From: a bacterium
Lineage (GTDB): Bacteria; Patescibacteriota; Minisyncoccia; Minisyncoccales; UBA10102
Assembly: GCA_030647485.1 (NCBI GenBank)
Contig: JAUSJT010000001.1
Coordinates: 12,947-76,946 of the forward strand
DNA: 64,000 nucleotides
Direction of reading: 5' to 3'
Positions 3,309-53,456 of the stretch are shown piece by piece. The notes under the pieces are model-generated. The model was not told where the DNA came from. It saw nothing but the letters and a program-made list of their open reading frames with translations, and ran no database searches. Position 1 is the stretch's first letter. The number at the start of each line of letters is the position of its first letter. Made by a program: the position numbers and the translations under genes.

Positions 3309-4253
3309 ATGTTGGCAATCGTAGTCCACGGCGGAGCTAGTGCGATCACCTCCTCGCCGGAACAGAAAGAGGGGGTCAGGATAGCGGGAGATAGGGGTAT
3401 GGAAAATCTCCGTGGCGGAGGACACGCGCTCGACGCGGTGCTGGCTGGGGGTACATACCTAGAAGGAACCTCGCTTTACAATGCCGGGTCTGGGTCATTG
3501 GTCAGATTTGATCCTAGGATGGGCATCTTCCGCATCCAAATGGATGCAATGATTGCAACCTCCGGTGGATTCCAAGGCGGAGTGATAGGGGTAGAAGGGG
3601 TGAAACACCCTCTTTTGCTCGCCGCAGAGGTTCCAAAGCGGACACCTCACCTCGCGATGAGTTGGGACGAGGGTTTGGAACGGATAGCAAGAGAGACTGG
3701 TCTTGACCCACATCCAGGCCCGAGCGAGTTCGCAATCAATCGCTTCCTGCAGTCGCTGTCAGGCATGACAGAGGCAGAAATCGCCGAGATGGCACCAGAC
3801 TGGACGAGGGAGAGCATTCTCAGGCGCTTGGAAGAACTGCATGGGAGTGGCAGCAAGAATCTTCTCTCTAACGGCCAGGATTGCGATACGGTGGCAGTAC
3901 TGGGGCTCGACTCCTTTGGCGAGCTCGCAGTAGGTTCTTCTACTGGCGGCATGGGTACAATGTGGATAGGTCGGGTTGGTGATGTGATTGAACGAGGCTC
4001 TGGATGGGAAATTGGTCCCTATGCCGTAGTTGCTACAACGGGGTTGGGTGAAGCGATCAAACAGGATAGAGTAGCGCAGACGGTATACCGTCGCATCGTG
4101 GAGGAAGGACGTGATCCAGATGCGGTCTGCAAAGAGTTTGTGGCCGGGTATGACCCTTCAATACCATTGGGGGTCGTTGCCCTTACCATACAGGGCAAGA
4201 TAGGCAAAGCATCAAATCGTGACATGCCTGTCTACTCCGATGTAGAGCTGTGA
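3309..4253 (+). CDS. Isoaspartyl peptidase / L-asparaginase (Ntn-hydrolase, plant-type asparaginase family)
   Basis: Starts MLAIVVHGGA. Autoprocessing/nucleophile region DTVAVLGLDSFGELAVGSSTGGM. Strong SD (AAGGAGG) 7 nt upstream. Visibly GC-richer than its neighbours. Confidence 0.85.
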   Translation: MLAIVVHGGASAITSSPEQKEGVRIAGDRGMENLRGGGHALDAVLAGGTYLEGTSLYNAGSGSLVRFDPRMGIFRIQMDAMIATSGGFQGGVIGVEGVKHPLLLAAEVPKRTPHLAMSWDEGLERIARETGLDPHPGPSEFAINRFLQSLSGMTEAEIAEMAPDWTRESILRRLEELHGSGSKNLLSNGQDCDTVAVLGLDSFGELAVGSSTGGMGTMWIGRVGDVIERGSGWEIGPYAVVATTGLGEAIKQDRVAQTVYRRIVEEGRDPDAVCKEFVAGYDPSIPLGVVALTIQGKIGKASNRDMPVYSDVEL

Positions 4254-36863: not shown

Positions 36864-36925
36864 ATACCGTTCATCTTGAATGGTCGGTTTGTTTTTAAGG
36901 GAGAATTACGATAGAATAGCAACAT

Positions 36926-37516
36926 ATGAAGGTTGTAGATATTCCCAGGGTTAGCGTTTTAGAAGCATTGAGTATTGCGGCAAAGGCACTCTCTCAAGGT
37001 AAGGTGCTTGTATGCCCTACAGATACTATCTATGGATTAATAGGAGACGCAACAAACGCAAAAGCGGTTGAGAAGATCTTTTGCATAAAACGCAGAAAAA
37101 AAGAAAAACCCCTTGGTATCTTTGTAAAAGACCTTGCCATGGCAAAGAAATTCGCCAAGATAACGAGAAAACAGGAGGCATTTTTAAAGAAAGCTTGGCC
37201 GGGAAAGGTGACGGCAGTGCTCCAAGTAAAAAAGAAGTTTCCTGAAGGGGTTGGAACACAAAAAACTATTGGTATAAGGGTGCCAAAGTATTCTTTTCTA
37301 GATCTCCTTTTTGAAAAGTTCCACCATGCTCTAGCGCAAACTTCGGTAAATATATCAGACACCCCACCCATAAAAAGGGTGAAAGATATGGTGAAGGTGT
37401 TTGGTAGACGAAAGTGGAAGCCAGACTTAATTTTTGATGCAGGAATACTTTCTTCTTCACGTCCCTCAAAAGTTATTGACATGACAATGGAGAAGAGAAA
37501 AATTCTACGAAAATGA
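36926..37516 (+). CDS. tsaC: L-threonylcarbamoyladenylate synthase (TsaC/YrdC family)
   Basis: VLVCPTDTIYGLIGDATNAKAVEKIFCIKRRKKEKPL. Confidence 0.85.
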   Translation: MKVVDIPRVSVLEALSIAAKALSQGKVLVCPTDTIYGLIGDATNAKAVEKIFCIKRRKKEKPLGIFVKDLAMAKKFAKITRKQEAFLKKAWPGKVTAVLQVKKKFPEGVGTQKTIGIRVPKYSFLDLLFEKFHHALAQTSVNISDTPPIKRVKDMVKVFGRRKWKPDLIFDAGILSSSRPSKVIDMTMEKRKILRK

Positions 37517-38841
37517 AAACACCACTACAAGCATCAGACCCCAAGGTGTATGAGCTTATAGAAGCAGAGCTTCAGCGCAGGAAAAAGGGCCTGGAAATGA
37601 TTCCTTCCGAGAACCATACATCTCCTGCGGTTCTTGAGGCTCTAGGATCCATACTTACCGATAAATATTCTGAAGGATATCCTAGTAGGAGATACTACGG
37701 AGGGAATGAGTTTATAGACAAAGTAGAAAACCTTGCCATAGAACGGGCCAAGCAGGCATTTGGAGTGCCGTATGCCAATGTACAGCCGTATTCTGGATCT
37801 CCAGCAAATTTAGCGGTTCACGTCGCAGTATGCAAGCCAGGGGATGTGGTTATGGGGTTAGACCTAACTCACGGCGGGCATTTAACACATGGGTCTAAGG
37901 TAAGCGTTACGGGGCAGTACTACAAAAGCGTGCAGTATCATGTTACTCCCGAAGGGCGTATTGATATTGAAGAGGTAAGAAGGCTGGCAACAGAACACAA
38001 TCCAAGATTACTATGGGTTGGGTATACCGCATATCCTCGTGAATTCCCGTTTGAAGAATTCTCAAAAATAGCAGATGGGGTTGGAGCGTATCTTGCAGCC
38101 GACATCTCGCATATCGCAGGGTTGGTGTTAGGAGGAAGCCATGCAAGCCCAGTTCCTTTTGCGCATATCGTTACCACAACAACGCACAAGACCCTTCGGG
38201 GTCCACGAGGTGCTATTGTCATGGTAACAGAAAAAGGATTGAAGAAAAATCCTGAACTTGGAGAGAAAATAGACAAAGCGATATTCCCTGGTTTGCAGGG
38301 GGGGCCGCACAACCACCAAACCGCTGCAATCGCAGTAGCTCTTGCTGAAGCTATGAAGCCTGAGTTCAAGGATTATGCGTATCAGGTAGTGAGTAATGCA
38401 AAGGCGTTGGCCCAAGGACTTATGGAGAACGGCTTAAAGTTGGTATCTAACGGGACAGACACTCATCTCATGCTTATTGATTTAACTCCCTATGGAAAAG
38501 GAATGGGAGTGTTTGCAGAGAAAGCATTGGATCTTGCAGGCATAACACTCAACAAGAACACCATACCAGGGGATCCTTCTTCTCCTTTTTATCCAAGCGG
38601 CATACGGCTCGGCACGCCAGCCATTACAACCCGGGGCATGAAAGAAAAAGAAATGGACATGGTGGCTAGCTGGATAATCCAGGTTATAGGAGAAATCAAA
38701 GCGTATCAGCTTCCAGAATCAAAAGATGAACGCAAGCCATACATTGCTTCTTTTGAGAAAGACATGGCAAAGAACCCTGCTGTTCTAAAGGTAAGGGGTG
38801 AAATAGAGAAACTGTGTGAGGGTTTTCCCCTGCCTTACTGA
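37513..38841 (+). CDS. glyA: Serine hydroxymethyltransferase
   Basis: LEMIPSENHTSPAVLEA and TTTTHKTLRGPRG (PLP lysine). Confidence 0.95.
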   Translation: MKTPLQASDPKVYELIEAELQRRKKGLEMIPSENHTSPAVLEALGSILTDKYSEGYPSRRYYGGNEFIDKVENLAIERAKQAFGVPYANVQPYSGSPANLAVHVAVCKPGDVVMGLDLTHGGHLTHGSKVSVTGQYYKSVQYHVTPEGRIDIEEVRRLATEHNPRLLWVGYTAYPREFPFEEFSKIADGVGAYLAADISHIAGLVLGGSHASPVPFAHIVTTTTHKTLRGPRGAIVMVTEKGLKKNPELGEKIDKAIFPGLQGGPHNHQTAAIAVALAEAMKPEFKDYAYQVVSNAKALAQGLMENGLKLVSNGTDTHLMLIDLTPYGKGMGVFAEKALDLAGITLNKNTIPGDPSSPFYPSGIRLGTPAITTRGMKEKEMDMVASWIIQVIGEIKAYQLPESKDERKPYIASFEKDMAKNPAVLKVRGEIEKLCEGFPLPY

Positions 38842-38849
38842 CATGCTAC

Positions 38850-38921
38850 GACTATTTAATTTTCTTTGCGCTTTACCCCACTGCGGTGGGGCCCTACGCG
38901 TCTTCAGAAAATCAAATAGTC
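38850..38921 (+). repeat. Copy B of the 72-74-nt hairpin repeat
   Basis: Arms GACTATTTAATTTTCT / AGAAAATCAAATAGTC (15 of 16 bp). Core is identical to copy C. Ends 13 nt before the folD ATG. Confidence 0.85.
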
Positions 38922-38934
38922 TTCGCATACTTTT

Positions 38935-39792
38935 ATGAAGATTTTAGATGGGGCAAAATTAGCAGACAGAATTTTGAAGGATCTCAAAAAAAAGAAGCGG
39001 AGCAAGGATCTCTCTCTTGCGGTGGTTCAGGTTGGAAACAACCAGGCTTCTCTAAAGTATATTGCAGAAAAGGAAAAAGTGGCAAAGGACCTTGGCATTG
39101 GATTTCGTCTGATGCTGTATCCTTCAACGGTTTCCCAAGCGACACTGATGAAAGCGGTAGGGAAGATAGGGAAAGATAAAAAGATATCTGGCATGATTGT
39201 GCAACTTCCTTTGCCAAAGCACCTTGATACACAGCCCATTCTGGACGCGATTCCCCAGTATAAAGATGTTGATGTGCTTTCTTCTTTGTCCTTTGCGGAA
39301 TTTGTCTTTGGAACTTTTCCCGTATTGCCTCCGACCGTTGCAGCAATTTCTCTGCTCCTCAAGCAAGTAAAAAAGAAACTTGAAGGGACGCAGGTCGCCG
39401 TGGTGGGGGCAGGACGGTTGGTTGGGTTACCTGTTTCTTTGTGGCTGGCGCAGCAGGGGGCTATTGTTTCTTTGATACAAAAGGGGACAAGAAACGCCTC
39501 TCAGTTTATTAAAAAAGCAGATATTGTGATTTCTGGAGTTGGGAAGGCCGGGTTGATAATAGGTTCAATGATAAAAAGAGGGGCCGTAGTTATTGATGCC
39601 GGCACTTCGGTGGAATCTGGCCCTTCGACTTCGCTCAGGGTCAAGAAAATACATGGTGATGTGGATTTCAAAAGCGTTTCAAAGAAAGCAGGGTATCTTT
39701 CTCCTGTTCCCGGAGGCGTGGGGCCCTTAACCGTCGTCTGTCTTTTTCAGAATCTTTTTGAGTTGACAAGCAGGCGAGATCGTGCTATATAA
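38935..39792 (+). CDS. folD: Bifunctional methylenetetrahydrofolate dehydrogenase/cyclohydrolase
   Basis: MKILDGAKLA, VVGAGRLVGLPV, SPVPGGVGPLTV. Confidence 0.95.
   Translation: MKILDGAKLADRILKDLKKKKRSKDLSLAVVQVGNNQASLKYIAEKEKVAKDLGIGFRLMLYPSTVSQATLMKAVGKIGKDKKISGMIVQLPLPKHLDTQPILDAIPQYKDVDVLSSLSFAEFVFGTFPVLPPTVAAISLLLKQVKKKLEGTQVAVVGAGRLVGLPVSLWLAQQGAIVSLIQKGTRNASQFIKKADIVISGVGKAGLIIGSMIKRGAVVIDAGTSVESGPSTSLRVKKIHGDVDFKSVSKKAGYLSPVPGGVGPLTVVCLFQNLFELTSRRDRAI
39619..39643 (+). repeat. TTCGACTTCGCTCAGG element in frame in folD
   Basis: GGCCCTTCGACTTCGCTCAGGGTCA encodes GPSTSLRV, an extra loop relative to E. coli FolD (recalled alignment RLENGKVVGDV). Confidence 0.75.
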
Positions 39793-39875
39793 AGACTATG
39801 CGTGGCAATCTCGCTGCGTAAGCACTTAGCAGGGCCCGCTAGAAAGCGACGCCCAAAAAAGAAGGAGGACTTGCG

Positions 39876-40535
39876 ATGGAAACGGCAACCCTTAAGCAGG
39901 CAGGAAAGGTGTTGGAGTTGATTGCACAGAGCGAAAGGTCGGGTGAGTGGATACAGAACCACCTGATTGGTTCTGGAGCCCTTTCAGATCTTTTGGCTGT
40001 GGATAATCTGGCTGGAATAAGTCGGGATGCCCGTCGGCGTGTCCTTGGACTTTCGGCACTCAACCCGTCGCTCTTGGAAGAGATTGGTATTGTCACCATC
40101 CCGGCGACGGTCGAGGCATTCGTGGCACGCGAGAAATTCGTAGTTGGCAGTGCCAAAGCGAAGATTTCCTGGATCGGCAGTAACTTCGAGGCGTGGTTTC
40201 TCGGTAGGACCGAAGAACCGTCCGTTGAGACGACGCTTTGCTATGCGAAGCTCGTAAAATCCTCGGTTGACGGTCCGATCCTTGTAGAACTCGGCGACAA
40301 GGCCGAAACCGCGCTCGCCCAGATTTGGGCGCTCATGGATCTTCAGCCGAACGGCGAGGAAGGTGTGTTGCTCATCAATGGGTGGGCCAACATCTTCTAT
40401 GCCCTGGATGCAAACGGCGAGCTCCGCGCGGTGCACGTCTACTGGCTCGAGGGTGGCTGGCTCGTGCATGCGGGTCCGGTCTCGAGCCCGTACAGGTGGT
40501 CTGGTGAGCACCGGGTGTTCTCCCGCAATTCCTAA
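39876..40535 (+). CDS. DGR target (variable) protein, C-terminal VR. The N-terminal ~180 aa have no recognised domain and no signal peptide
   Basis: 219 aa, GC-rich, SD GAAGGAGG upstream. The last 37 codons are the VR (ELRAVHVYWLEGGWLVHAGPVSSPYRWSGEHRVFSRN). Confidence 0.85.
   Translation: METATLKQAGKVLELIAQSERSGEWIQNHLIGSGALSDLLAVDNLAGISRDARRRVLGLSALNPSLLEEIGIVTIPATVEAFVAREKFVVGSAKAKISWIGSNFEAWFLGRTEEPSVETTLCYAKLVKSSVDGPILVELGDKAETALAQIWALMDLQPNGEEGVLLINGWANIFYALDANGELRAVHVYWLEGGWLVHAGPVSSPYRWSGEHRVFSRNS
40419..40528 (+). repeat. DGR variable repeat (VR)
   Basis: 110-nt gapless match to 40798-40907 with 18 mismatches, all opposite a TR adenine. Confidence 0.9.
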
Positions 40536-40540
40536 AACTT

Positions 40541-40555
40541 GGGATCCTAGATCCC
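40541..40555 (+). promoter_or_regulatory. Short hairpin GGGATC-CTA-GATCCC 5 nt after the target stop (candidate DGR homing hairpin)
   Basis: Read directly from the sequence. Present downstream of the VR but absent downstream of the TR. Confidence 0.4.
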
Positions 40556-40564
40556 TAAACAAGT

Positions 40565-40603
40565 GCCCCGTGTTGGTTTACCAACACGGGGCGTTTTCTT
40601 TTC
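40565..40603 (+). terminator. Rho-independent terminator of the DGR target gene
   Basis: 12-bp stem GCCCCGTGTTGG / CCAACACGGGGC, loop TTTA, then GTTTTCTTTTCG. Confidence 0.8.
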
Positions 40604-40797
40604 GTACAATATTTGATACGATAAAATGGATTCATAAGAACGGAACGGTTACGGCTTTTCCGACGTGGATTCAGAATGCGTTGCATTCTACAAAAATACA
40701 GGAATTGGTACTGGGAGCTAGGGAGTTTTGAGACTCCGAATACGATTCAATCCTGAGAGTATTCAAAGGATGGTGGCAGAGATGGCTTCTGGTATGA

Positions 40798-40907
40798 GAG
40801 CTCCGCGCGGTGAACGTCAACTGGAACGAGGATGGCTGGAACGTGAATGCGAATCCGGTCACGAACCCGAACAGGTGGAATGATGAGAACCGGGTGTTCT
40901 CCCGAAA
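40798..40907 (+). repeat. DGR template repeat (TR)
   Basis: Non-coding copy of the VR. In the VR frame it reads ELRAVNVNWNEDGWNVNANPVTNPNRWNDENRVFSRN (AAC-rich). 18 of its 30 adenines differ in the VR. Followed by hairpin CTCCCGCT...AGCGGGAG + TTTTATTTT (about 40918-40950). Confidence 0.9.
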
Positions 40908-40927
40908 CTGCTGTATTCTCCCGCTCT

Positions 40928-41266
40928 TTATATAGCGGGAGTTTTATTTTCAAATCCTTTTCTCCATCCGCCAAGCATCCTCCCTATTTCATTTAAGTGT
41001 TCAGAAAGAGCGATATATTTTTTGCTATCTAACGCTTTTATTTCCCACGCAACCTGCAGAAAGAACTTGAGCACGTCAAGCTTAAGAAGCCCTCGTTTAA
41101 TATGCGGCAGTTTCTCTTGTTTTGAGAGATAGCTCGCGATGACTATGCTTTCTAATACTTCAACAAAGAAAGAATCAATTTTTTCTCCCAACGTGTACAG
41201 TGAGGTTTTCGGAAAATGTGGAAGGTATGCCTGCCAAAGTTTGTATGTTGCAACTAATTTTTGCAA
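40928..41266 (-). CDS. avd: Avd-like accessory protein (four-helix-bundle / 23S rRNA-intervening-sequence protein family), TTG start
   Basis: 112 aa. FPKTSLYTLGEKIDSFFVEVLESIVIA ... LSEHLNEIGRMLGGWRK is typical of this family. Lies between TR and RT but on the opposite strand. Confidence 0.7.
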   Translation of the reverse strand: MQKLVATYKLWQAYLPHFPKTSLYTLGEKIDSFFVEVLESIVIASYLSKQEKLPHIKRGLLKLDVLKFFLQVAWEIKALDSKKYIALSEHLNEIGRMLGGWRKGFENKTPAI

Positions 41267-41282
41267 AACAGATAAACCCGTT

Positions 41283-41292
41283 GGGGGGGGGG
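41283..41292. repeat. G10 homopolymer tract in the 46-nt avd-RT divergent spacer
   Basis: ttGGGGGGGGGGct read directly from the sequence, 21 nt upstream of the RT ATG. Confidence 0.9.
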
Positions 41293-41312
41293 CTTACCTG
41301 CAAAGAGTTTGT

Positions 41313-42308
41313 ATGAAAATTCAGTTGAGACATACGTTTGAAGATATTATCAGCATGGAAAACCTTTTGGAGGCATGGAAAGAGTTTGTAAAAGGCAAAA
41401 GAGGGAAGAAGGATGTGCAGGAGTTCTCTTTGCGCCTAATAGATAACATTCTATCTCTCCGCAGAGATCTTGCCAATGGCACATATAAGCATGGAGGATA
41501 TAGGGCATTTAACATTTCAGACCCCAAGCCAAGAAGTATCCATAAAGCAACTGTTCGAGATAGATTATTGCATCACGCCATCTATCGCATCCTCTACTCA
41601 TTCTTTGATAAAACTTTCATTTCGGATTCTTTTTCTTGCAGGAAAGATAAAGGAACGCACAGAGCATTGAATAGATTTCGGGGATTTGCGTATAAGGTAA
41701 GTCAAAACAATATAAGAACCTGCTGGGTGCTTAAATGCGACATCAGGAGATTCTTTGATAATATTGACCACAAAATTTTAATACAAGTTCTTGAAACATA
41801 TATTCCCGACAAAAACATTATGTGGCTTTTGAAAAACGTGATAGATAGTTTCTCAAAAAATACGCTTGGCATTGGTCTTCCACTTGGGAATTTAACCTCG
41901 CAACTGTTCGTGAATATTTATATGAACGAGTTTGATCAGTTTGTAAAATACAAACTCAAAGAAAAATATTATCTTCGTTATGCAGATGATTTCGTTCTTC
42001 TTTCAGAGAGCCGAAATTCACTAAAACAGCAAGTTGAACCAGTGCGCAATTTTTTATACGAGAAACTCGGCCTTGAGCTACATCCTCAAAAGCTCTTTAT
42101 TAAAACCTTTGCTTCTGGGGTTGATTTTCTCGGCTGGGTACATTTCTTTGGTCATCGGACGTTGCGAACCACCACAAGGAGGCGTATGATGAAAAAACTT
42201 GAGGCAAGCCAAAATCCTCAGACACTTAGTTCTTATTTAGGGCTTTTGTGCTATGGAAACACACGTAAACTCCAGAGAGAAGTTCTAAAACAATACTTTT
42301 GTGAATAG
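41313..42308 (+). CDS. DGR reverse transcriptase
   Basis: 331 aa from MKIQLRH. GLPLGNLTSQLFVNIY (GNLTSQ at 41886-41903), YLRYADDFVLL (YADD at 41979-41990), no maturase/En domains. The track start at 41139 overlaps avd antisense and was rejected. Confidence 0.9.
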   Translation: MKIQLRHTFEDIISMENLLEAWKEFVKGKRGKKDVQEFSLRLIDNILSLRRDLANGTYKHGGYRAFNISDPKPRSIHKATVRDRLLHHAIYRILYSFFDKTFISDSFSCRKDKGTHRALNRFRGFAYKVSQNNIRTCWVLKCDIRRFFDNIDHKILIQVLETYIPDKNIMWLLKNVIDSFSKNTLGIGLPLGNLTSQLFVNIYMNEFDQFVKYKLKEKYYLRYADDFVLLSESRNSLKQQVEPVRNFLYEKLGLELHPQKLFIKTFASGVDFLGWVHFFGHRTLRTTTRRRMMKKLEASQNPQTLSSYLGLLCYGNTRKLQREVLKQYFCE

Positions 42309-42774
42309 CGTCATTATTTTTTTCGCAACATATGCAGGGTACCTACTTATGGGAGGACTGCTGGTCTTTTTGCTAAAGGGCTGGAAAGAGCGCATTGTTT
42401 TGGCATTGCAGATGATTATAGCGGCAACCTTGTCTCGAGGGATTATTACAGAAGTTATACGTTTATTCTGGTATCGCACCAGGCCGTTTGTAGAGCAGAA
42501 CTTTGTTCCATTGATTCCGCATGCTGATTCTGCCTCGTTTCCTTCAGGGCACGCCACATTTCTCTTTGCCATAGGAACGGTGTTATATGCATATAACAAA
42601 AAAGCAGGAGTGGTGTTCCTGCTGGGCAGTGCTGCTATTGTTATAGCGAGAGCATTAGCCGGAGTCCATTGGCCTTCTGATATTATCTGGGGAGCTTTGA
42701 TAGGAGTTGTCTGTGGATTGGTAGTGTCAAAGTTTGCTATAATCTATAATAGGTTTAAACAGCATGCAAATTGA
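42301..42774 (+). CDS. PAP2-family phosphatase (undecaprenyl-diphosphatase-like)
   Basis: SFPSGHATFLF and GVHWPSDIIWG motifs. GTG start overlaps the RT stop. An alternative start lies at 42349. Confidence 0.8.
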   Translation: MNSVIIFFATYAGYLLMGGLLVFLLKGWKERIVLALQMIIAATLSRGIITEVIRLFWYRTRPFVEQNFVPLIPHADSASFPSGHATFLFAIGTVLYAYNKKAGVVFLLGSAAIVIARALAGVHWPSDIIWGALIGVVCGLVVSKFAIIYNRFKQHAN

Positions 42775-43177
42775 TATTGATACAATTGTAAAACTCGTAG
42801 TGTCTATTGCGGTAGGCGTTTTGATTGGCTGGGAGCGGGAAAGAAGCAAGAGGCCTGCTGGCTTGAGGACTCATGTGTTGGTTTCTCTTGGGGCGTGCTT
42901 ATTTACCATAGCCGCGTTGGAAGTAGTAGGCACACAAGCGGATGCTCTCTCACGGGTTATTCAGGGTATTGCCACTGGAGTAGGTTTTCTTGGAGCTGGG
43001 ATTATCTTCCATGACAAAGAGAAAACCATTGGCTTGACTACTGCTGCGGAAATATGGAGCTTGGCTGCCATTGGTACATTGGCAGGGTTGGGTAGCTATG
43101 CCTTAGCCATTATTGCGGCAGTGCTTATTTTGGTTGTACTTGTTCCTTTCAAGTGGCTGGAGAGAAAAGAATTGTAG
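42764..43177 (+). CDS. MgtC/SapB-family membrane protein
   Basis: 137 aa. GWERERSKRPAGLRTHVLVSLGA is the typical MgtC N-domain motif. Confidence 0.8.
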   Translation: MQIDIDTIVKLVVSIAVGVLIGWERERSKRPAGLRTHVLVSLGACLFTIAALEVVGTQADALSRVIQGIATGVGFLGAGIIFHDKEKTIGLTTAAEIWSLAAIGTLAGLGSYALAIIAAVLILVVLVPFKWLERKEL

Positions 43178-43266
43178 TGGAACGTAAGAACGTAACATTT
43201 GCTTCGCAAATTGTACGTTCAACGTTCCAACAGCGTTTAAATTTTCTTTGAAAATTTATTACGCTG

Positions 43267-43349
43267 TGCCTGGGGTGGGAGTCGAACCCACACGAGCTTG
43301 CGCTCAAAGGTTTTTGAGACCTTCGCGTAAACCATTCCGCCACCCAGGC
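43267..43349 (-). tRNA. tRNA-Leu (anticodon CAA), CCA not encoded
   Basis: Acceptor GCCTGGG/CCCAGGC, anticodon arm AAGGT-CTCAAAA-ACCTT, long variable arm GAGC-GCAA-GCTC, T arm GTGGG-TTCGACT-CCCAC. Confidence 0.9.
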
Positions 43350-43463
43350 CCCTGTCCGCCGAAGGCGGACAAGAGGTCCCGTAAACGGGACTTCTTTACT
43401 CTACTTAAGTTTTTCTTGTTTGTACACTCCCATACTATTATATTAGTTGTGGGGGTGAACTTG

Positions 43464-45527
43464 CTATTTTGAGTTTTCGCACTCCTTATTTGAGCACTTT
43501 ACCACATCTTTTCCTGTTTCTACGAGAAGAGATTCGCATACTTTGCAAGGTTCTCCCGTTGGTTTTTGCCACAATGCAAACGTGCATGCAGGGTATGTGT
43601 TGCACCCGTAGAATGTTCTTCTTGTTTTGGTGAGTTTACGTACGATTTCTCCTTTCTTGTCCCGCTGCGCGGGATCTGGCGAAGCCAGACACACAGGGCA
43701 GGGAATGCCAAGGCCTGTCTTTTCTTTCTGCATATTCTCTGTATATCTGCATTTGGGAAACGTGGAGCAAGCGTAGAACTTTCCAAACCTTCCCATGCGA
43801 ACGATAAGGGGAGAGGAGCATGTGGGGCAGGTTTTATCCGTGGTTTCTGTGATGATGTCTTTTTTTAAAACCTCTTCGTATTTCTTTGCGAGGTTTTCTT
43901 CAAAAGGCACGTAGAATTCTCTCATGGTAGGAACCCACTCTTTTTCTCCTTGGGCTATCTTATCTAACTTTTCTTCCATGTCCGCGGTAAAGGCGATATC
44001 AACGATTTGTGGAAAATGCTGTACCAGCACATCGTTGACCGTGAATCCAAGATCCGTTGGTTTAAATCTTCTTTGTTCGTCTTTTTCAATGTATCCGCGA
44101 TCTTGAATAGTAGAGAGAGTGGGGGCATAGGTGGAAGGTCTTCCAATGCCGTGTTCTTCCAATGCTTTTACCAGCGAGGCTTCTGTGAAGCGCGCAGGAG
44201 GCTGGGTAAAATGCTGGAAGGGATTTAGGGTTATGAGACTTGCCACATCATCTTTTTGAAGCTCTGGAAGTTCTTTCTCCTCAAACTTCATAGGATATAC
44301 TTTTAAGAACCCGTCAAACTTTAGTGTTTGTCCCGTGGAAGCGAAAACAGCATCTTTTGCCGAAATTTCAGCCTTGGTAAGGTCAAGAATTGCCTGGCTC
44401 ATTTGCGACGCCATAAAGCGTCTCCACACGAGGTCGTAGAGCTTGAAGCTGCGGGGGTCCAGTTTCTTTTGAACCTTCAGAGATTCTGGGGATTCTGCAG
44501 GGTACGTTGGCCGTATTGCCTCGTGCGCTTCTTGGGCGCCTTTTGACCTTCCTTTGAATATCCTCGGAGACCCTGGCCAATAATTCTCCCCATACGTGTT
44601 TGTAATATATGTGTGTGCGGCTTGAAGGGAGAATTCAGAAAGGTTGACAGAGTCTGTGCGGTGGTAGGTGATAAATCCCGTTTCATACAGGTGTTGGGCA
44701 ACAGACATGGTTGTCCTTGCGGTAAAACGCAGTTTCTTTGATGCTTCCTGTTGCAAGGTCGATGTCATAAACGGAGGAAGGGGATTATGCCGTGTTTCCC
44801 GTTTCTCTACTTTTTCTACCAGGTATTCTGCTTCCTGCAGGTCCTTCATCAAGTCGTCAGCTTCTTTCTGTGTCTTGATGGTGAGCTTGGAAATGACCTC
44901 ATCACCATTTTTAATAAGTATTGCCTGGAATTCTTTCTTGCCCTTTTCCAAGACAGCTTCTATGCTCCAGTATTCTTGTGGTTTGAATGCTTGGATTTCC
45001 CGTTCGCGGTCTGCAACAAGGCGTACTGCTACTGATTGTACGCGTCCTGCAGACAGCCCTCGCGCGATCTTTTTCCAAAGAAAAGGGGAGAGTTTATATC
45101 CCACCAGCCTATCTAAGATTCGTCGCGCTTGCTGGGCGTTCACCCTGTTCATGTCTATGGCTCTTGGGTGTTTTAACGCGTCAACAATTGCTTCCTTTGT
45201 TATCTCGTGGAATACGATGCGTTTTGGGTCTTTGAGACCGAGCACCTCTGCAATGTGCCAGGCAATAGCTTCTCCTTCTCGGTCCTCGTCGGTTGCAAGA
45301 ATGGTTTCTTCTGCTTTCTTTGCCAGTTTTTTCAGGCTGGTCACCGTCTTTCTTGCCTTTGTGGGGATGACGTAGGAAGGAGTAAAGTCATGCTCAACAT
45401 CAATGCCTATGTTTCCTTTGGGAAGATCGCGAATATGTCCCAAAGAAGATTGGACTTCATATTCTTTCCCAAGAAACTTTTTTAATGTGAGAGCCTTTGT
45501 GGGGCTTTCAACCACAATAAACTTCAT
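43464..45527 (-). CDS. topA: DNA topoisomerase I
   Basis: MKFIVVESPTKA (Toprim), ITYHRTDS active-site tyrosine region, and C-terminal Cys4 zinc fingers. Confidence 0.95.
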   Translation of the reverse strand: MKFIVVESPTKALTLKKFLGKEYEVQSSLGHIRDLPKGNIGIDVEHDFTPSYVIPTKARKTVTSLKKLAKKAEETILATDEDREGEAIAWHIAEVLGLKDPKRIVFHEITKEAIVDALKHPRAIDMNRVNAQQARRILDRLVGYKLSPFLWKKIARGLSAGRVQSVAVRLVADREREIQAFKPQEYWSIEAVLEKGKKEFQAILIKNGDEVISKLTIKTQKEADDLMKDLQEAEYLVEKVEKRETRHNPLPPFMTSTLQQEASKKLRFTARTTMSVAQHLYETGFITYHRTDSVNLSEFSLQAAHTYITNTYGENYWPGSPRIFKGRSKGAQEAHEAIRPTYPAESPESLKVQKKLDPRSFKLYDLVWRRFMASQMSQAILDLTKAEISAKDAVFASTGQTLKFDGFLKVYPMKFEEKELPELQKDDVASLITLNPFQHFTQPPARFTEASLVKALEEHGIGRPSTYAPTLSTIQDRGYIEKDEQRRFKPTDLGFTVNDVLVQHFPQIVDIAFTADMEEKLDKIAQGEKEWVPTMREFYVPFEENLAKKYEEVLKKDIITETTDKTCPTCSSPLIVRMGRFGKFYACSTFPKCRYTENMQKEKTGLGIPCPVCLASPDPAQRDKKGEIVRKLTKTRRTFYGCNTYPACTFALWQKPTGEPCKVCESLLVETGKDVVKCSNKECENSK

Positions 45528-45540
45528 GCTTTTTACTGTA

Positions 45541-47499
45541 TCACGATTTTAGTTTTTCCACCGCCTCGCTTAACATCTGACAATAAAGATTGAGACCGAC
45601 TGCGTTCACGTTTCCCGATTGTTCTTTCCCAAGAATGTTTCCTGCACCCCGTATCTCCATATCCCTCAACGCAATGCGATATCCAGACCCCAGAGCTCCA
45701 GCTTCGCTTAGGGCGTCAAGACGCAGTTTTACCTTGCCTTCTAGTTTTGCTCCGTGCAGAAAATATGCGAAAGACTCGGTGTGCGATCTCCCGACCCGCC
45801 CCCGTATCTGGTAGGCCTGGGAAAGCCCGAGTTTTGTTGCGTCTTCTACAACCAAAGTGTTTACGTTGGGAAGATCTAGGCCGTTCTCAATAATAGTGGT
45901 TGCGACCAGCACATCATACGTTCTATCTTTAAAGTCGTCCATGACGCGTATGAGTTCTCGTTCTCGTAATCTTCCATGTACTATGCCAATGCGTGCGCTG
46001 GGAACGAGTCGCTCTAGATGTTTTTTGACTAATGCAATGGTCCCAATGCGGTTATGCAGGTAATATATCTGTCCTTTACGTGCAAGCTCTTTTTCTATGG
46101 CTTCCCGTATAATCTTTTCGTTTCTCTTCTGCACTACTATGCGTACAGGAAATCTTCCCTCGGGAGGAGTTTGTATGATGCTGATGTTCTTCAAGGAAGC
46201 TAGAGACATATACAGGGTGCGGGGGATCGGAGTGGCAGATAAAGAGAGAACGTCCAGAGAGGTTTTTAATTCCCTAAGTTTTTCTTTCTGTTTTACCCCG
46301 AATCGCTGTTCGTCGTCTATAACCAGCAGGCCAAGATTCTTGAACTGTACGTCAGAAGAAAAAAGGCGATGGGTGGATACTATGAGATCTGCTTTTCCCG
46401 TGTGTATTTTTTCTAGAGCTATATGTTGCTCTTTTTGTGTTTGGAGACGAGAGAGAAAGACAACTTGCAAGGGTAGGTTTTTTAACCTCGCAGAGAAATT
46501 CTGGAAATGCTGGTATGCGAGAATGGTGGTGGGGGCCAAGAGCGCTGCCTGATACCCTTGTTCTACTGCGCGAACCATGGTTCTTAGGGCAACCTCGGTT
46601 TTCCCGAATCCAACGTCTCCGCACAAGAGCCTGTCCATGGGCTCTGTGCGCTCCAAGTCCTTATTAATTTCTTGGAGAGCCTGTATTTGATCTGGAGTTT
46701 CTTCGTACTGGAATGATGAGGCAACGTGTTCTGAAAGCAGGCTCGGTTCTTGGTAGGGAAGGCGCGAAGTGACTTCTCGCTGCGCGTATAGGTCCAAGAG
46801 CTGCTGGGCAAGTTTCTCTACTTCTTCTTTTATCTTCCGTTTTGTTTTTGACCAGAAAGGAGAGCCCAGCCTAGAGATGTGCGGCTCTCCAAAACCAACG
46901 TACCTGGATAATTTCCGTTCTAGTCCCACGGGAACAAAGAGTTTGTCTTGCCCCAGATATTCTAATGTATAGTAGAGATGTTCTGGCATGAGTTCTTGCA
47001 TGCCCGTATACTGCGCAACCCCGTGGTCTAGGTGCACAAGGTATTCCCCTTCCTTGAGGTTTTTAATGTCAGAAAATAATTTTTGGGATTTGAGACGTTT
47101 CTTTAAAATATTCTTTACTACTTCTTCGTCTGCGTTTTTCTCTAACCGTTCTATACTTTCTATCTTGTTCCCAAGGAATTCTATGCGTATGGCGTTCGAT
47201 GAATTAATGGGGAACACCTCAACGTGTCCTCCAAGATGTACGAATTCTCCGGGATCCCGTACCTCAAAAACTTTCTCATATCCCAATTCGTCTAGTTTTC
47301 TTAAAAGTTCGGATAAGGAGTGTTCCTGGTTTTTTTCTAACAAGAGCGTGTTTTCTTGAAAGAATACCTGGGTTTGCCGCGCCTCTACTATTTTTGCGAA
47401 GTTTTCTTCAAACCAAACGTTGCCCTTTTCCAGAAAATATGGGGTTATACCAACTATCAATACTCTTTCAATTGTTTTTGATGGATGTGCTATTGGCAT
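45541..47499 (-). CDS. mfd: Transcription-repair coupling factor Mfd, compact form (652 aa)
   Basis: FQYEETPDQIQALQEINKDLERTEPMDRLLCGDVGFGKTEVA, DEQRFG, and a CarD-like EGEYLVHLDHGVAQY. Appears to lack the long N- and C-terminal extensions of E. coli Mfd. Confidence 0.85.
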   Translation of the reverse strand: MPIAHPSKTIERVLIVGITPYFLEKGNVWFEENFAKIVEARQTQVFFQENTLLLEKNQEHSLSELLRKLDELGYEKVFEVRDPGEFVHLGGHVEVFPINSSNAIRIEFLGNKIESIERLEKNADEEVVKNILKKRLKSQKLFSDIKNLKEGEYLVHLDHGVAQYTGMQELMPEHLYYTLEYLGQDKLFVPVGLERKLSRYVGFGEPHISRLGSPFWSKTKRKIKEEVEKLAQQLLDLYAQREVTSRLPYQEPSLLSEHVASSFQYEETPDQIQALQEINKDLERTEPMDRLLCGDVGFGKTEVALRTMVRAVEQGYQAALLAPTTILAYQHFQNFSARLKNLPLQVVFLSRLQTQKEQHIALEKIHTGKADLIVSTHRLFSSDVQFKNLGLLVIDDEQRFGVKQKEKLRELKTSLDVLSLSATPIPRTLYMSLASLKNISIIQTPPEGRFPVRIVVQKRNEKIIREAIEKELARKGQIYYLHNRIGTIALVKKHLERLVPSARIGIVHGRLRERELIRVMDDFKDRTYDVLVATTIIENGLDLPNVNTLVVEDATKLGLSQAYQIRGRVGRSHTESFAYFLHGAKLEGKVKLRLDALSEAGALGSGYRIALRDMEIRGAGNILGKEQSGNVNAVGLNLYCQMLSEAVEKLKS

Positions 47500-50828: not shown

Positions 50829-51332
50829 ATGTTTTCACGCCAAAGCATCCAAGAAGATTTAAAGCAGTCAATGCTCAAGAAAAATGAGCTCCGCACAGGA
50901 ACGTTGCGTATGCTTTTGGCTGCGGTTTCAAATAAGGAAAAAGAAAAGAGGTATAAGATGAGTAAGGCAGAGCCCAATCTTTCAGAGCAGGAACTTCAAG
51001 CAAAGAGCGAGCTTTCTCTTCAAGAAGTTCAAGATGCGGTATCTTCAGAGGTAAAAAAGAGGAGGGAAGCTGCCGAGGGTTTTGAGAAAGGAGGGAGAAA
51101 AGAGCAGGCAGAAAAAGAGAGACAAGAAATGGAGATATTGCTTCCATACCTTCCAACGCAATTGTCAGAAGATGAGATACGGCAGCTTGTGAAAGACGTG
51201 ATTGCGAAGGTCAGAGCTGCTGGCCCGCAGGATTTTGGAAAAGTTATGGGAGTATTGGCTCCGCAAACCAGGGGCAAAGCCGACGGGAATCTTGTTAGCA
51301 AAATTGTGAAAGAACTATTGACGTTACAGTAG
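50829..51332 (+). CDS. GatB/YqeY domain protein
   Basis: IQEDLKQSMLKKNELRTGTLRMLLAAV and the C-terminal GKADGNLVSKIVKELL. Confidence 0.85.
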   Translation: MFSRQSIQEDLKQSMLKKNELRTGTLRMLLAAVSNKEKEKRYKMSKAEPNLSEQELQAKSELSLQEVQDAVSSEVKKRREAAEGFEKGGRKEQAEKERQEMEILLPYLPTQLSEDEIRQLVKDVIAKVRAAGPQDFGKVMGVLAPQTRGKADGNLVSKIVKELLTLQ

Positions 51333-51340
51333 GGGGGGGG
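51332..51340. repeat. G9 homopolymer tract starting in the YqeY stop codon, about 50 nt upstream of the surface-protein gene
   Basis: taGGGGGGGGGta read directly from the sequence. Confidence 0.9.
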
Positions 51341-51389: not shown

Positions 51390-53456
51390 ATGAGTTTCAA
51401 AAAATTAGTTTTCGTTATTGCGTTTCTCGGAATTTTAGCCGGAGGATTTTTCGCAAACGCGCAACCAGCGCAGGCTGCTACTGTTGAGGAGCTTATGGCC
51501 CTGATCGCTCAATTAAAGGCGCAGATCCTTCAACTTCAGCAGCAGCTTACAACAACTCAAGGCCAGCCAGCGGCTTGGTGCCATACTTTCAACTCCAACC
51601 TGCGTTTTGGAGACAATGGAAGCGAGGTGGTTGCTCTCCAAACCGCTCTTGCAAAGGATGGCGCTTCTCAATGGGAGTTTAAAGGATATGACGGTATCTT
51701 TGATGAAATGACAGCTTCGGTTGTGGTTGGGTTTCAGCAGAAATACGCGAGCGAGATTCTTACTCCTTTTGGCTTAAAGTTTGGCACAGGGTTTGTGGGA
51801 AAAGGCACAAGAGCAAAACTCAATGCTTTATACGGATGTTCAGCATCTGCGGTTCAGCCTGTAACTTCACCTGTTACGGTGATTCCTCCAACGATTGTGA
51901 CCCAGACTAGCCCTGTGCTTACTTTGGGGACAATTATTACCCAGGGTTCTGCTATACAGGTTCCATTAACCTGGACGAATGTTCAAGGGGCCATGAAATA
52001 TAATGTGTATAATAAACATTCTCAAAACGAAGCATATGGCGCAGCAATAGCTGGAGTTGGAGGATTGAGCTATACCGCAACCGCACTCGCCACTCAAGAT
52101 AACTATTTCCAGATTCAAGCTTGCAGTTCTATCACTTGCTATCCCTCTAACGAGGTATTCGTTCAGCAGGCCCTAGGCGTAACCCAACCTTCCATCACCG
52201 TTCTTTCTCCCAACGGAGGAGAACAGTGGGCAGTTGGGAATACTTATGATGTAACTTGGAATAATTATTCCTTGCCAAGCACTTGCAATGTCAGCGTTAC
52301 GCTTTTTAACCCTTCAAATAATGGTTCTGCTTATGGCGGGAATAATACTCCCATTCCCGCTTCCTTGGGAAAATATTCTTTTTACGTATCATCAGTTATT
52401 CCCATTGGGGATAATTACAAAATCCAGGTAATAGGCGACAAGAATTGTTCTGGCACAATGGACCAAAGTGATAATTATTTCAGCATTGTTTCGGCAATAA
52501 CCCCTGTATCGTATTCCGCGCCAGAAATGGTGTATCCGGCAAATGGACAAGTTCTGAATTATGGGTATCCTCATGGCTACATGTTTAAGGTGAAGCCAAT
52601 TGTGGGGGCAACGGCCTATCGCTATCAATTCTTTCAGAACGGTTCATCGGTGCATGATAATCTTAATAGTCTAAGTTCAAATGGAGAGTTTGCGGTCTGG
52701 CCCAGCGAATCTTCTTATTCAAAATTTCAAGAGGGGAATGTATCTGTTTGGATTCGCGCCTTAGTCAACGGCCAATGGACTGAAACAAGAACAATCACAA
52801 TAATCCTTGGAAGATCAGACCTCTATCCTACGCCAATTACAACTCCGAACACTACAGGAGTCATTAAGACTGGCGATCAAGTTTTCTTTGATAGCGGAGT
52901 TGGCAACAAGGGGCCCGTCACAACGGGCATATTTAACATTAAATGGTTTGTTGACGACGTACAGACTGGCTACGGTTCTCATTCCGGGGTTTCTGGCAGT
53001 TCAACAACGATGGAGGGCAATTCGCAGTTTACCTGGACTGCTATTGAGGGTGTCCATACTATAAAGTTTGTAGTGGATGCAGATAATCACGTGAACGAAT
53101 CCGATGAAACGAAGAATACGGCTTCAACAACGGTTACGGTATCTCCAGTAGTAGCGTCTCCATCCATCACTGTTCTTTCTCCGAATGGGGGAGAAAAGCT
53201 TGTAGCTGGGCAGATATATGATATTGCTTGGAAGTTCTCGGGCTCTACCGATAAGATTGTTCAAATTGAGCTTGGGCTTCCAGATTCGGACGGGCCTATT
53301 CTTACAAATGTCGCGGTAAGTCTTCAAAGACATTCTTGGATAGTGCCCTTAGGCATTGCTTCGCGAGATGATTACAGAATTATTATCAGAGAGCCAGCTC
53401 CAACATATACACTTTTAGATAACAGTGATAACTATTTCAGCATTGTTTCTCCTTAA
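51390..53456 (+). CDS. Secreted cell-surface protein: signal peptide, peptidoglycan-binding domain, Ig-like/CARDB-like modules
   Basis: N-terminal signal (FVIAFLGILAGGFFANAQPAQA). PG_binding_1-like LRFGDNGSEVVALQTALAKDG. Duplicated module PSITVLSPNGGE(Q/K) at about 52188 and about 53167. Confidence 0.8.
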   Translation: MSFKKLVFVIAFLGILAGGFFANAQPAQAATVEELMALIAQLKAQILQLQQQLTTTQGQPAAWCHTFNSNLRFGDNGSEVVALQTALAKDGASQWEFKGYDGIFDEMTASVVVGFQQKYASEILTPFGLKFGTGFVGKGTRAKLNALYGCSASAVQPVTSPVTVIPPTIVTQTSPVLTLGTIITQGSAIQVPLTWTNVQGAMKYNVYNKHSQNEAYGAAIAGVGGLSYTATALATQDNYFQIQACSSITCYPSNEVFVQQALGVTQPSITVLSPNGGEQWAVGNTYDVTWNNYSLPSTCNVSVTLFNPSNNGSAYGGNNTPIPASLGKYSFYVSSVIPIGDNYKIQVIGDKNCSGTMDQSDNYFSIVSAITPVSYSAPEMVYPANGQVLNYGYPHGYMFKVKPIVGATAYRYQFFQNGSSVHDNLNSLSSNGEFAVWPSESSYSKFQEGNVSVWIRALVNGQWTETRTITIILGRSDLYPTPITTPNTTGVIKTGDQVFFDSGVGNKGPVTTGIFNIKWFVDDVQTGYGSHSGVSGSSTTMEGNSQFTWTAIEGVHTIKFVVDADNHVNESDETKNTASTTVTVSPVVASPSITVLSPNGGEKLVAGQIYDIAWKFSGSTDKIVQIELGLPDSDGPILTNVAVSLQRHSWIVPLGIASRDDYRIIIREPAPTYTLLDNSDNYFSIVSP

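Follow-up and report, generated by a model that had tools for sequence, protein, structure and literature searches.

Conserved RNA elements around the TR of a Patescibacteria DGR with an inverted avd gene

Introduction

Among the DGRs of CPR bacteria, the architecture designated B3, with the core order TR-(avd)-RT, accounts for 90% of the set in Wu et al. 2018 (NAR 46:11, PMC5758913), and that paper states that DGR parts on different strands require at least two transcripts. In the Bordetella phage BPP-1 (Handa et al. 2018, PMC6182149; bioRxiv 10.1101/2023.10.23.563531), the avd gene is located upstream in the same orientation, and the final 20 nt of avd belong to the DGR RNA; the primer A56, the stop strand, the thumb ring, and the RT-binding stem are located in a 140-nt spacer downstream of the TR. 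The Avd-binding stem-loop of this phage comes first after the TR, and the priming and stop strands follow 50 to 70 nt downstream. For CPR elements, Table S3 of Handa et al. lists hairpins (e.g., CUCUCCCUAUCUUACGGGAGAG) as putative Avd-binding stem-loops and predicts stop duplexes 48 to 57 nt downstream of the TR; this hairpin class is read there only as Avd binding, with further RNA elements predicted downstream. Two RNA motifs found beside bacterial RT genes, RT-9 (RF03080) and RT-10, are included in Rfam, and RT-10 corresponds to the BPP-1 TR-RT spacer (Weinberg et al. 2017, PMC5737381).

Here, we describe a DGR in a 64,000-nt stretch of a Patescibacteria genome (contig JAUSJT010000001.1 of assembly GCA_030647485.1; hereafter the window) and compare it with related loci. 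A previous sequence-only reading had drawn attention to the inverted avd gene that separates the TR from the RT gene; the sequence features that it listed are all present, with small corrections to coordinates.

Results

The DGR comprises the following parts.

39876-40535, plus strand: DGR target gene from the ORF list, 219 aa, with the VR at its 3′ end
40419-40528, plus strand: VR, an ungapped match to the TR that covers the last codons of the target ORF
40561-40596, both strands: GC-rich hairpin 3′ of the VR with a T-run; perfect 13-bp core at 40565-40592 (inverted repeat I9)
40798-40907, plus strand: TR, aligned without gaps to the VR; last adenine-specific difference at 40905
40928-41266, minus strand: avd, encoding 112 aa from a TTG start; matches Pfam bAvd and NCBIfam DivGenRetAVD
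41267-41312: divergent avd-RT spacer, 46 nt
41283-41292, no strand assigned: poly-G tract (G10) inside the avd-RT spacer
41313-42308, plus strand: DGR RT, 331 aa, with an RVT_1 match

The order of target(+), TR(+), avd(-), and RT(+) given by the sequence-only reading agrees with the ORF coordinates and the TR/VR alignment, and the 46-nt length of the avd-RT spacer was likewise correct. All 18 mismatches between the TR and the VR fall at TR adenines, between 40813 and 40905, and 45 related loci together display 792 adenine versus 73 non-adenine mismatches. The avd product matches Pfam bAvd (E value, 2.4e-13; 50.9 bits) above the gathering score of 40, and NCBIfam DivGenRetAVD (E value, 1e-19; 70.6 bits) just under the cut-off of 80. 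The best solved relative of the RT is 8ub7_A (328-aa chain; E value, 1e-42), which we take to be the Bordetella phage bRT, and the RT carries LGNLTSQ, which fits the DGR signature [I/L/V]GxxxSQ. At least 8,000 RT homologues were found, and those with a source name belong to CPR bacteria or unclassified metagenome-assembled genomes. The 219-aa target protein has no Pfam or NCBIfam match. An adenine-specific TR/VR repeat, a DGR-clade RT beside the TR, a VR inside a coding target gene, and Avd are thus all present, and the core reads TR-(avd)-RT, in which avd is on the reverse strand and is the sole accessory gene. The locus is a complete chromosomal DGR of the standard CPR/Patescibacteria kind, with architecture B3 and probably with the TR inside a dedicated RNA gene. 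The element is apparently active, as judged indirectly from the trace left by the adenine-specific TR/VR pattern.

Loci encoding RTs that are 59 to 73% identical to that of the window, drawn from many studies and assemblers, were used for comparison. An inverted avd gene directly upstream of the RT gene was found in 141 of the 144 related loci with enough upstream sequence, and the order VR(+)...TR(+)-(avd)-RT(+) was recorded in 58 loci. Spacings between the DGR parts are tightly conserved, with medians in these 58 loci of 333 nt from VR to TR, 12 nt from TR to the avd stop, and 50 nt from the avd start to the RT start. The layout had been called atypical; given its conservation among relatives and its publication as B3 in 90% of the CPR set (PMC5758913), this description does not hold. 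The B3 DGRs of Wu et al. share with this locus the core order, the target gene upstream on the RT strand, the CPR/Patescibacteria host, and a VR in the 3′-terminal part of a small target gene whose function is unknown, with no difference in layout. The arrangement itself adds nothing new, and the locus is one more member of a published group. The elements that are not described in the available part of that paper are the structure of the leader RNA, a long-range helix (P0), and the poly-G tract.

The TR sits in what looks like its own non-coding RNA gene of ∼320 nt, extending roughly from 40629 to 40950, with the following parts.

40614-40622, plus strand: extended -10-like box TGATACGAT, which may be the TR RNA promoter, with a start predicted near 40629
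40641-40662, plus strand: 5′ stem-loop with a UACG tetraloop (CGGAACGGT-TACG-GCTTTTCCG)
40673-40689, plus strand: small hairpin AGAATGC-GTT-GCATTCT
40692-40696, plus strand: conserved A-run that precedes and overlaps the P0 5′ strand
40695-40701, plus strand: P0 5′ strand (AATACAG), from RNAalifold on the full-RNA alignment
40708-40795, plus strand: three-way junction, which stops 2 nt before the TR
40708-40719/40784-40795, plus strand: P1, closing stem of the three-way junction
40722-40727/40732-40737, plus strand: P2, stem in the three-way junction
40750-40758/40763-40771, plus strand: P3, stem in the three-way junction
40911-40917, plus strand: P0 3′ strand (CTGTATT), directly after the TR
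40918-40950, plus strand: 8-bp hairpin and T-run, terminator-like on the plus strand only (terminator scan)

In 5′-to-3′ order, the conserved parts are the -10-like box, one or two UACG stem-loops, the A-run, the P0 5′ strand, and the three-way junction, followed by the TR, the P0 3′ strand, and the GC-rich hairpin with its U-tract. Of 46 related leaders, 26 have a TGnTAnnnT box at a constant position (0.06 expected), which suggests, at the level of the consensus, that it is the promoter of the TR RNA; a generic promoter scan did not flag the box at 40614-40622. In 32 of the 46 relatives, one or two constant positions are taken by UACG-capped hairpins whose outer stems covary. The small hairpin AGAATGC-GTT-GCATTCT, lying one base from where the sequence-only reading had placed it, occupies the spot at which many relatives have a second UACG hairpin. 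Downstream of the A-run, A40703 is invariant in a 43-sequence alignment and at least 90% conserved in a 58-sequence alignment.

The three-way junction is supported by double-sided changes in 20 of the 22 pairs that RNAalifold predicts for P1 to P3. Across the alignment, 95.7% of the cells are paired, versus 72.8% in shuffles (0/500) and 36 to 50% when the partners are slid. With a profile hidden Markov model of this region, the leader was detected in 101 of 102 loci; it was on the strand of the RT gene in every case, and its end lay upstream of the RT start at a median distance of 530 nt. Folding of the RNA had been proposed as a check by the sequence-only reading; run on 40628-40952 as a single sequence, it gives z = -2.9 and reproduces the hairpins and P2, together with a long stem that closes the P1 region and pairing between the leader and the post-TR sequence.

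The helix P0 encloses both the three-way junction and the TR. Compensatory changes occur at all 7 of its pairs, and cognate strands form more stable duplexes than non-cognate strands (-6.1 versus -3.4 kcal/mol; 0/20,000 permutations, P < 5e-5). Its 3′ strand begins at a median of 0 nt from the end of TR/VR homology (45 loci), and its upstream strand lies ∼100 nt before the TR rather than adjoining it. We hypothesize, by analogy with retrons, that P0 supplies a possible primer strand upstream of the template.

Several other relationships of the leader were considered. The window UACG hairpin resembles the hairpin of RT-9, and the match to RF03080 reaches 29.3 bits against a gathering score of 46.1 and is not reproduced in relatives, so membership in this family was rejected. 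Rfam families were not matched in the leaders of 30 related loci, and neither the three-way junction nor P0 is in Rfam 15; the conserved folded RNA around the TR looks undescribed. The idea that the leader derives from the 3′ end of an ancestral avd gene was also rejected, as the Avd profile hit translated leaders only at E values above 0.2; a few weak matches cluster toward the C terminus of the profile. When the leader A-run region was paired with the U-rich tail that follows the hairpin, cognate combinations did no better than non-cognate ones (permutation P = 0.97); both segments are nearly invariant, so the result speaks neither for nor against this pairing.

The hairpin after the TR consists of the arms CTCCCGCT (40918-40925) and AGCGGGAG (40934-40941) followed by TTTTATTTT (40942-40950), and the avd stop codon (40928-40930) lies in its loop, which confirms the overlap reported by the sequence-only reading. 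A hairpin with a T-run is found at this place in 47 of 58 loci, compared with 3.1% of equal-sized background windows. Of the 11 loci failing this strict test, at least 5 (L020, L036, L041, L068, and L070) still carry a hairpin by eye; the feature was judged by enrichment and stem statistics because its 5′ arms misalign in MAFFT and RNAalifold. There are 43 distinct stems among the loci. Relative to avd, the T-run is found in each of the three reading frames and is therefore not kept by avd coding. With a GC-rich stem-loop followed by a U-tract, the element has the form of an intrinsic (Rho-independent) terminator on the plus strand, and the consensus suggests that it is the end of the TR RNA. 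The base of the stem, CTC...GAG, is conserved in 27 of the 47 loci, which suggests a role beyond termination. Located 11 to 34 nt after the TR, the hairpin belongs to the class that Table S3 of Handa et al. gives as putative Avd-binding stem-loops. A triple repeat in the window, GT[GA]TTCTCCCG[CA] (family D3), had raised the idea that the hairpin 3′ arm pairs with the TR 3′ end; this pairing is not conserved in relatives, and cognate combinations of the TR 3′ end and the tail gave P = 0.80.

A Bordetella-like read-through RNA is the alternative with the most in its favor, and we regard it as unlikely. Here, the hairpin would serve for Avd binding only, and the RNA would run on through antisense avd, which would provide the primer strand, stop duplex, and RT-binding stem, possibly continuing into the RT mRNA. 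The TR and RT share a strand, a promoter scan found no clear RT promoter in the 46-nt spacer, and both the BPP-1 arrangement and the stop duplexes and downstream elements that Handa et al. predict for CPR hairpins of this class agree with such a transcript. However, the U-tract is kept regardless of the avd frame, and the transcript would collide head-on with avd transcription. The predicted stop duplex, in which antisense avd would pair with the 40 nt that precede the TR, was rejected, as cognate pairs are no better than non-cognate pairs (P = 0.23) or shuffled sequence (-21.6 versus -21.1 kcal/mol), and its upstream strand is already taken by the strongly covarying P3 and P1. By eye, synonymous sites of avd GGW codons do not track the leader. 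Partial read-through from the TR into the RT gene may nevertheless occur, since the two have the same orientation and no more than the 46-nt spacer precedes the RT gene.

The sequence-only reading had the hairpin end both the TR RNA and the avd mRNA as a bidirectional terminator, for which its overlap with the avd stop and a stem that reads the same on both strands would speak. This proposal is very unlikely to hold: the T-run is on the plus strand only, so the hairpin is not bidirectional, and the terminator scan agrees. On the avd strand, the window continues with AATACAGCAG and lacks a U-tract, and relatives continue with the A-rich complement of the P0 3′ strand. The post-VR hairpin (40561-40596), which the scan found to be terminator-like on both strands, is likely the target-gene terminator and could end avd transcripts too; in position, it corresponds to the GC-rich inverted repeat that follows the IMH. 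That the inverted avd instead arose as an artefact of assembly or binning, or by a single rearrangement of a cassette with the canonical order avd-TR-RT, has next to no chance: apart from the source being a metagenome-assembled genome, no supporting evidence was found. The comparative sequence data already refute it, since 141 of 144 independent loci, obtained in many studies and with many assemblers, have this order and orientation, the spacings are conserved, and the arrangement is published as B3 (PMC5758913).

The spacer between the divergent avd and RT genes carries a run of G7 or longer at the same place in 121 of 141 loci. Elsewhere in these loci, 469 kb of sequence contains a single further run of at least 8 G or C. 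No link between DGRs and poly-G tracts appeared among the ten best-ranked of 3,138 literature matches.

Discussion

The conserved anatomy of the locus, the covariation, and the adenine-specific TR/VR pattern are observed directly, and we propose the following as the most likely course of events. The TR RNA is plausibly a separate transcript, as the sequence-only reading had supposed; the -10-like box upstream and the hairpin with its U-tract downstream support this idea. The hairpin and U-tract would terminate the TR transcript, and the hairpin would remain as the 3′-terminal stem-loop of the RNA and bind a protein, for which Avd is the candidate. P0 may mark the 3′ edge of the template and P1 the 5′ edge, where cDNA synthesis would presumably start and stop. 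The avd and RT genes would be expressed separately from the short divergent spacer. RT-Avd would then copy the TR RNA with adenine-specific errors, and the cDNA would replace the VR.

Several features of this RNA are shared with that of BPP-1, including the RT and Avd, adenine-specific transfer from TR to VR, a stem-loop immediately after the TR, a duplex of sequences upstream and downstream of the TR (here P0), and a helix abutting the TR 5′ edge. In contrast to BPP-1, avd is inverted, a large conserved structure lies upstream of the TR, and only ∼45 nt separate the TR from the U-tract, beyond which antisense avd shows no detectable specific pairing. Where BPP-1 has its ∼140-nt downstream spacer, the TR is followed only by the P0 3′ strand, one hairpin, and the U-tract. 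Priming determinants thus appear to differ from those of the Bordetella layout, with conserved elements upstream of the TR and P0 joining the leader to the TR 3′ flank, which bears out the spirit of an expectation already voiced in the sequence-only reading.

In the msr/msd RNA of retrons, the 5′ leader and the sequence flanking the template on its 3′ side are paired through an inverted repeat. The window RNA has a similar inverted repeat, with structured stem-loops between the 5′ strand and the template, and the 5′ strand would end beside the first templated base with a conserved unpaired purine near. The RT, however, is far closer to 8ub7_A (E value, 1e-42) than to the retron-type 5hhl_A (E value, 3.4e-21), its match to NCBIfam retron_St85_RT scores 52.7 bits against a cut-off of 235, and the locus has Avd and a VR target with adenine mutagenesis. 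The resemblance is one of RNA topology only and not of membership.

We tentatively suggest, as a possibility that we favor less than its alternatives taken together, that the template RNA of B3 DGRs corresponds to the Bordetella DGR RNA in a permuted, retron-like form. The P0 5′ strand and A40703 in the leader, and not a downstream spacer, might position and prime the cDNA, and the three-way junction might act as the stop and RT-binding module of a self-contained, terminator-bounded small RNA that acts in trans. In addition, the conserved poly-G tract of variable length in the promoter spacer of avd and RT might turn the element on and off.

These results provide a concrete, covariation-supported RNA model for the largest natural group of DGRs, to which the Bordetella rule (avd tail, TR, and 140-nt spacer) cannot be applied in its present form. 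Because the model specifies individual bases as targets for mutation, the question becomes directly testable. If P0 and A40703 do prime synthesis, DGR RNAs would exist in at least two topologies, one of them retron-like. Such a finding would bear on the evolution of these elements from group II intron-like RTs and would aid the design of compact trans-acting templates for DGR-based mutagenesis tools.

Cassette anatomy and genomic neighborhood

The window carries a complete diversity-generating retroelement (DGR) at the place where the sequence-only reading had put it. The template repeat (TR), variable repeat (VR), accessory gene avd, reverse transcriptase (RT) gene, hairpin after the TR, and 46-nt spacer between avd and the RT were all found.

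Features of the DGR cassette and its non-coding leader, the stretch between VR and TR (window positions)
39876-40535, + strand: target ORF, with the VR at its end
40419-40528, + strand: VR, aligned to the TR without gaps
40614-40622: extended -10-like box, TGATACGAT
40641-40662: UACG-capped stem-loop
40673-40689: small hairpin, AGAATGC-GTT-GCATTCT
40695-40701 with 40911-40917: long-range helix P0, AATACAG with CTGTATT, the 3' strand being the seven bases straight after the TR
40708-40719 with 40784-40795: junction stem P1, ending 2 nt before the TR
40722-40727 with 40732-40737: junction stem P2
40750-40758 with 40763-40771: junction stem P3
40798-40907, + strand: TR, aligned to the VR without gaps
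40918-40941, + strand: hairpin after the TR, arms CTCCCGCT/AGCGGGAG
40942-40950, + strand: T-rich run 3' of the hairpin, TTTTATTTT
40928-41266, - strand: avd, matching Pfam bAvd and NCBIfam DivGenRetAVD
41313-42308, + strand: RT (RVT_1)

All 18 differences between TR and VR fall at TR adenines, within 40813-40905. The avd product exceeds the gathering score of Pfam bAvd (E value, 2.4e-13) and matches NCBIfam DivGenRetAVD at an E value of 1e-19 and 70.6 bits, slightly under the cut-off of 80. The nearest solved structure to the RT is 8ub7_A (328-aa chain; E value, 1e-42), which is probably the Bordetella phage bRT. Housekeeping genes surround the cassette (window positions 36900-45600), with Pfam placing folD directly upstream and a PAP2 phosphatase directly downstream; judging from ORF translations, the further neighbors are presumably glyA upstream and topA and mfd downstream. 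No recognizable phage genes occur in the ORF listing for 36-46 kb, which together with the housekeeping neighborhood fits a chromosomal, cell-encoded DGR.

A perfect 13-bp GC-rich inverted repeat (40565-40592, within 40561-40596) lies about 35 nt past the VR, in the same place as the GC-rich repeat downstream of the IMH in other DGRs. It is terminator-like on both strands and could end the target mRNA as well as avd transcripts running antisense over the TR RNA gene.

The inverted avd among related loci

The sequence-only reading regarded this layout as atypical, a view that the literature and the relatives both refute. Architecture B3, written "TR-(avd)-RT" with parentheses marking the reverse strand, is defined by Wu et al. 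2018 (PMC5758913), who also state that at least two transcription units are needed where DGR parts occupy different strands. The RT has at least 8000 homologs at E<1e-20, and the named sources among the best 120 of these are CPR/Patescibacteria or unclassified MAGs. The comparison drew 80 loci each from species-representative genomes and from metagenomes. Of these, 144 extend 150 nt or more upstream of the RT, and in 141 of them the gene next to the RT on that side is avd, on the opposite strand. Two of the three exceptions have just 150-159 nt upstream; in the third, the Doudnabacteria locus L079 (PLYC01000019.1), avd (2140-2448, + strand) and the RT (at 4001) share a strand about 1.5 kb apart. 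Order and strands are identical to those of the window in the 58 loci with a detectable TR/VR pair (median spacings: VR to TR, 333 nt; TR end to avd stop, 12 nt; avd start to RT start, 50 nt). The agreement within these two sets excludes an assembly artifact, and the arrangement of the window is the norm for this clade.

The spacer between the divergent avd and RT starts contains a run of ten G (41283-41292). Of 141 loci, 121 have a run of at least seven G at this position, most often 9-10 long, and just one other run of at least eight G or C is present elsewhere in 469 kb of sequence from these loci. Among six pairs of near-identical loci, two show a length difference of one G, which could be real slippage or sequencing error, and one locus (L041) has (GA)n in place of the tract. 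The tract might act as a length-variable (phase-variable) promoter spacer or form part of both 5' leaders; a literature search linking DGRs and poly-G returned no DGR term among its ten best-ranked matches. A second long run, of nine G (51332-51340), is intergenic; it immediately follows the stop of ORF 50829-51332, precedes a 688-aa ORF (51390-53456) by about 50 nt, and is followed by TACGAT, as in some DGR spacers.

A covarying RNA structure encloses the TR

The spacers between VR and TR are strongly conserved, and RNAalifold predicted a three-way junction (P1 to P3) from 58 leaders, with 20 of its 22 pairs retaining pairing through two-sided changes. P0 emerged when RNAalifold was applied to the whole-RNA alignment of 43 sequences, with compensatory changes at all seven pairs; most relatives carry AUGAAGA/UCUUCAU and others AACGAAGA/UCUUCGUU. 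Across P0 to P3, 95.7% of cells are paired versus 72.8% in column shuffles (0/500 reach the observed value), and sliding the 3' partners by 1-3 columns lowers pairing to 36-50%. Cognate P0 strands pair at -6.1 kcal/mol versus -3.4 kcal/mol for non-cognate strands (0/20,000 permutations). The median distance from the end of TR/VR homology to the P0 3' strand is 0 nt, and 42 of 45 loci have their last adenine-specific site upstream of that strand. A40703, two bases past the P0 5' strand, shows no variation among the 43 aligned whole-RNA sequences and is at least 90% conserved among the 58 aligned leaders. Its own profile HMM detected the leader in 101 of the 102 loci that have 1 kb or more of upstream sequence, on the RT strand in every case; the median distance from the end of the leader to the RT start is 530 nt.

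Insertions in P3 (columns 116-156 of alignment A3) affect the loop in loci L016, L040, L059, L063, and L071 and the 5' arm in L041. Some resemble a small extra hairpin, as is typical of variable peripheral elements in structured RNAs.

Upstream of the junction, 32 of 46 loci have UACG-capped stem-loops with covarying outer stems, at either one or two fixed positions. The small hairpin that had been noted in the leader is confirmed at 40673-40689, at the site of the second UACG hairpin in many relatives. An extended -10-like box (TGnTAnnnT) is present at a constant position in 26 of the 46 leaders, where 0.06 would be expected. Searches with Rfam 15 gave no family at threshold on this region in the window and 30 relatives. 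A sub-threshold match to RT-9 (RF03080) at 40638-40709 (29.3 bits against a gathering score of 46.1) is driven by the UACG hairpin and was not reproduced in 30 related loci, and membership was rejected. The ideas that the leader is a relic of an avd 3' end, or that its A-run pairs with the U-tail, gained no support.

A one-directional terminator-like hairpin follows the TR

At the post-TR position, 47 of 58 loci have a GC-containing hairpin with at least five T in the nine bases after it, against 3.1% of 12,929 background windows of equal size drawn from these loci; of the 11 that fail this strict test, at least five (L020, L036, L041, L068, and L070) show a hairpin by eye. The 47 hairpins have 43 distinct 5' arms and stems of 6-11 bp, and 27 share a CTC...GAG stem base. 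As had been noted, the hairpin overlaps the avd stop codon (40928-40930), which lies in its loop. Among loci the position of the stop varies, from 14 nt ahead of the hairpin to 22 nt inside it, and all three avd reading frames are represented among the T-runs, indicating that the element is kept at the nucleotide level and not by avd coding. The proposed bidirectional terminator is not supported, as the avd strand shows no T-run after the hairpin in the window or its relatives; the element is terminator-like in one direction.

For Bordetella, Handa et al. (bioRxiv 10.1101/2023.10.23.563531) showed an Avd-binding stem-loop as the first element past the TR, and Table S3 of that work gives CPR hairpins as putative Avd-binding stem-loops, e.g., CUCUCCCUAUCUUACGGGAGAG from an Azambacteria genome. 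The post-TR hairpin is exactly of this type. The two putative roles are compatible, since a terminator hairpin is retained in the completed transcript, where a protein can still bind it.

Three copies of a 12-mer, GT[GA]TTCTCCCG[CA], are present: where the VR ends (40515-40526), where the TR ends (40894-40905), and across the 5' arm of the post-TR hairpin (40913-40924). In principle, the 3' arm of that hairpin could therefore base-pair with the end of the TR. Neither the hairpin arm nor the tail was supported as a pairing partner of the TR 3' end; the arm/TR pairing potential is not kept in relatives.

A putative separate TR RNA and its possible priming

The TR appears to occupy a dedicated RNA gene about 320 nt long, delimited by the promoter-like box and the terminator-like hairpin, which supports the earlier proposal that the TR RNA is separate from the RT mRNA. 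The main alternative is that the RNA reads through into antisense avd, which would supply spacer elements like those of the Bordetella phage. However, the 40 nt upstream of the TR pair with antisense avd no better in cognate than in non-cognate combinations (p = 0.23) and no better than shuffled sequences (-21.6 versus -21.1 kcal/mol), and the upstream strand of the predicted read-through duplex is already taken by the covarying P3 and P1. Partial read-through is possible.

P0 has the geometry required of a cis-primer: the leader strand points its 3' end at the start of the template, just 5' of 40911, and a conserved adenosine lies next to it. P1 sits at the far template end, the site of the Bordetella "stop" duplex. 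Retron RNAs have the same topology, with a primer strand upstream, then structured stem-loops, the template, and the complementary strand, whereas the topology of the Bordetella DGR RNA is unlike that of the TR RNA here. A priming role for P0 is a hypothesis that we consider possible but less likely than not. The earlier suggestion of a separate TR transcript with different priming determinants is plausible on the covariation-supported RNA model, the transcript itself being predicted. This model is specific and testable, and it appears to be undescribed so far.
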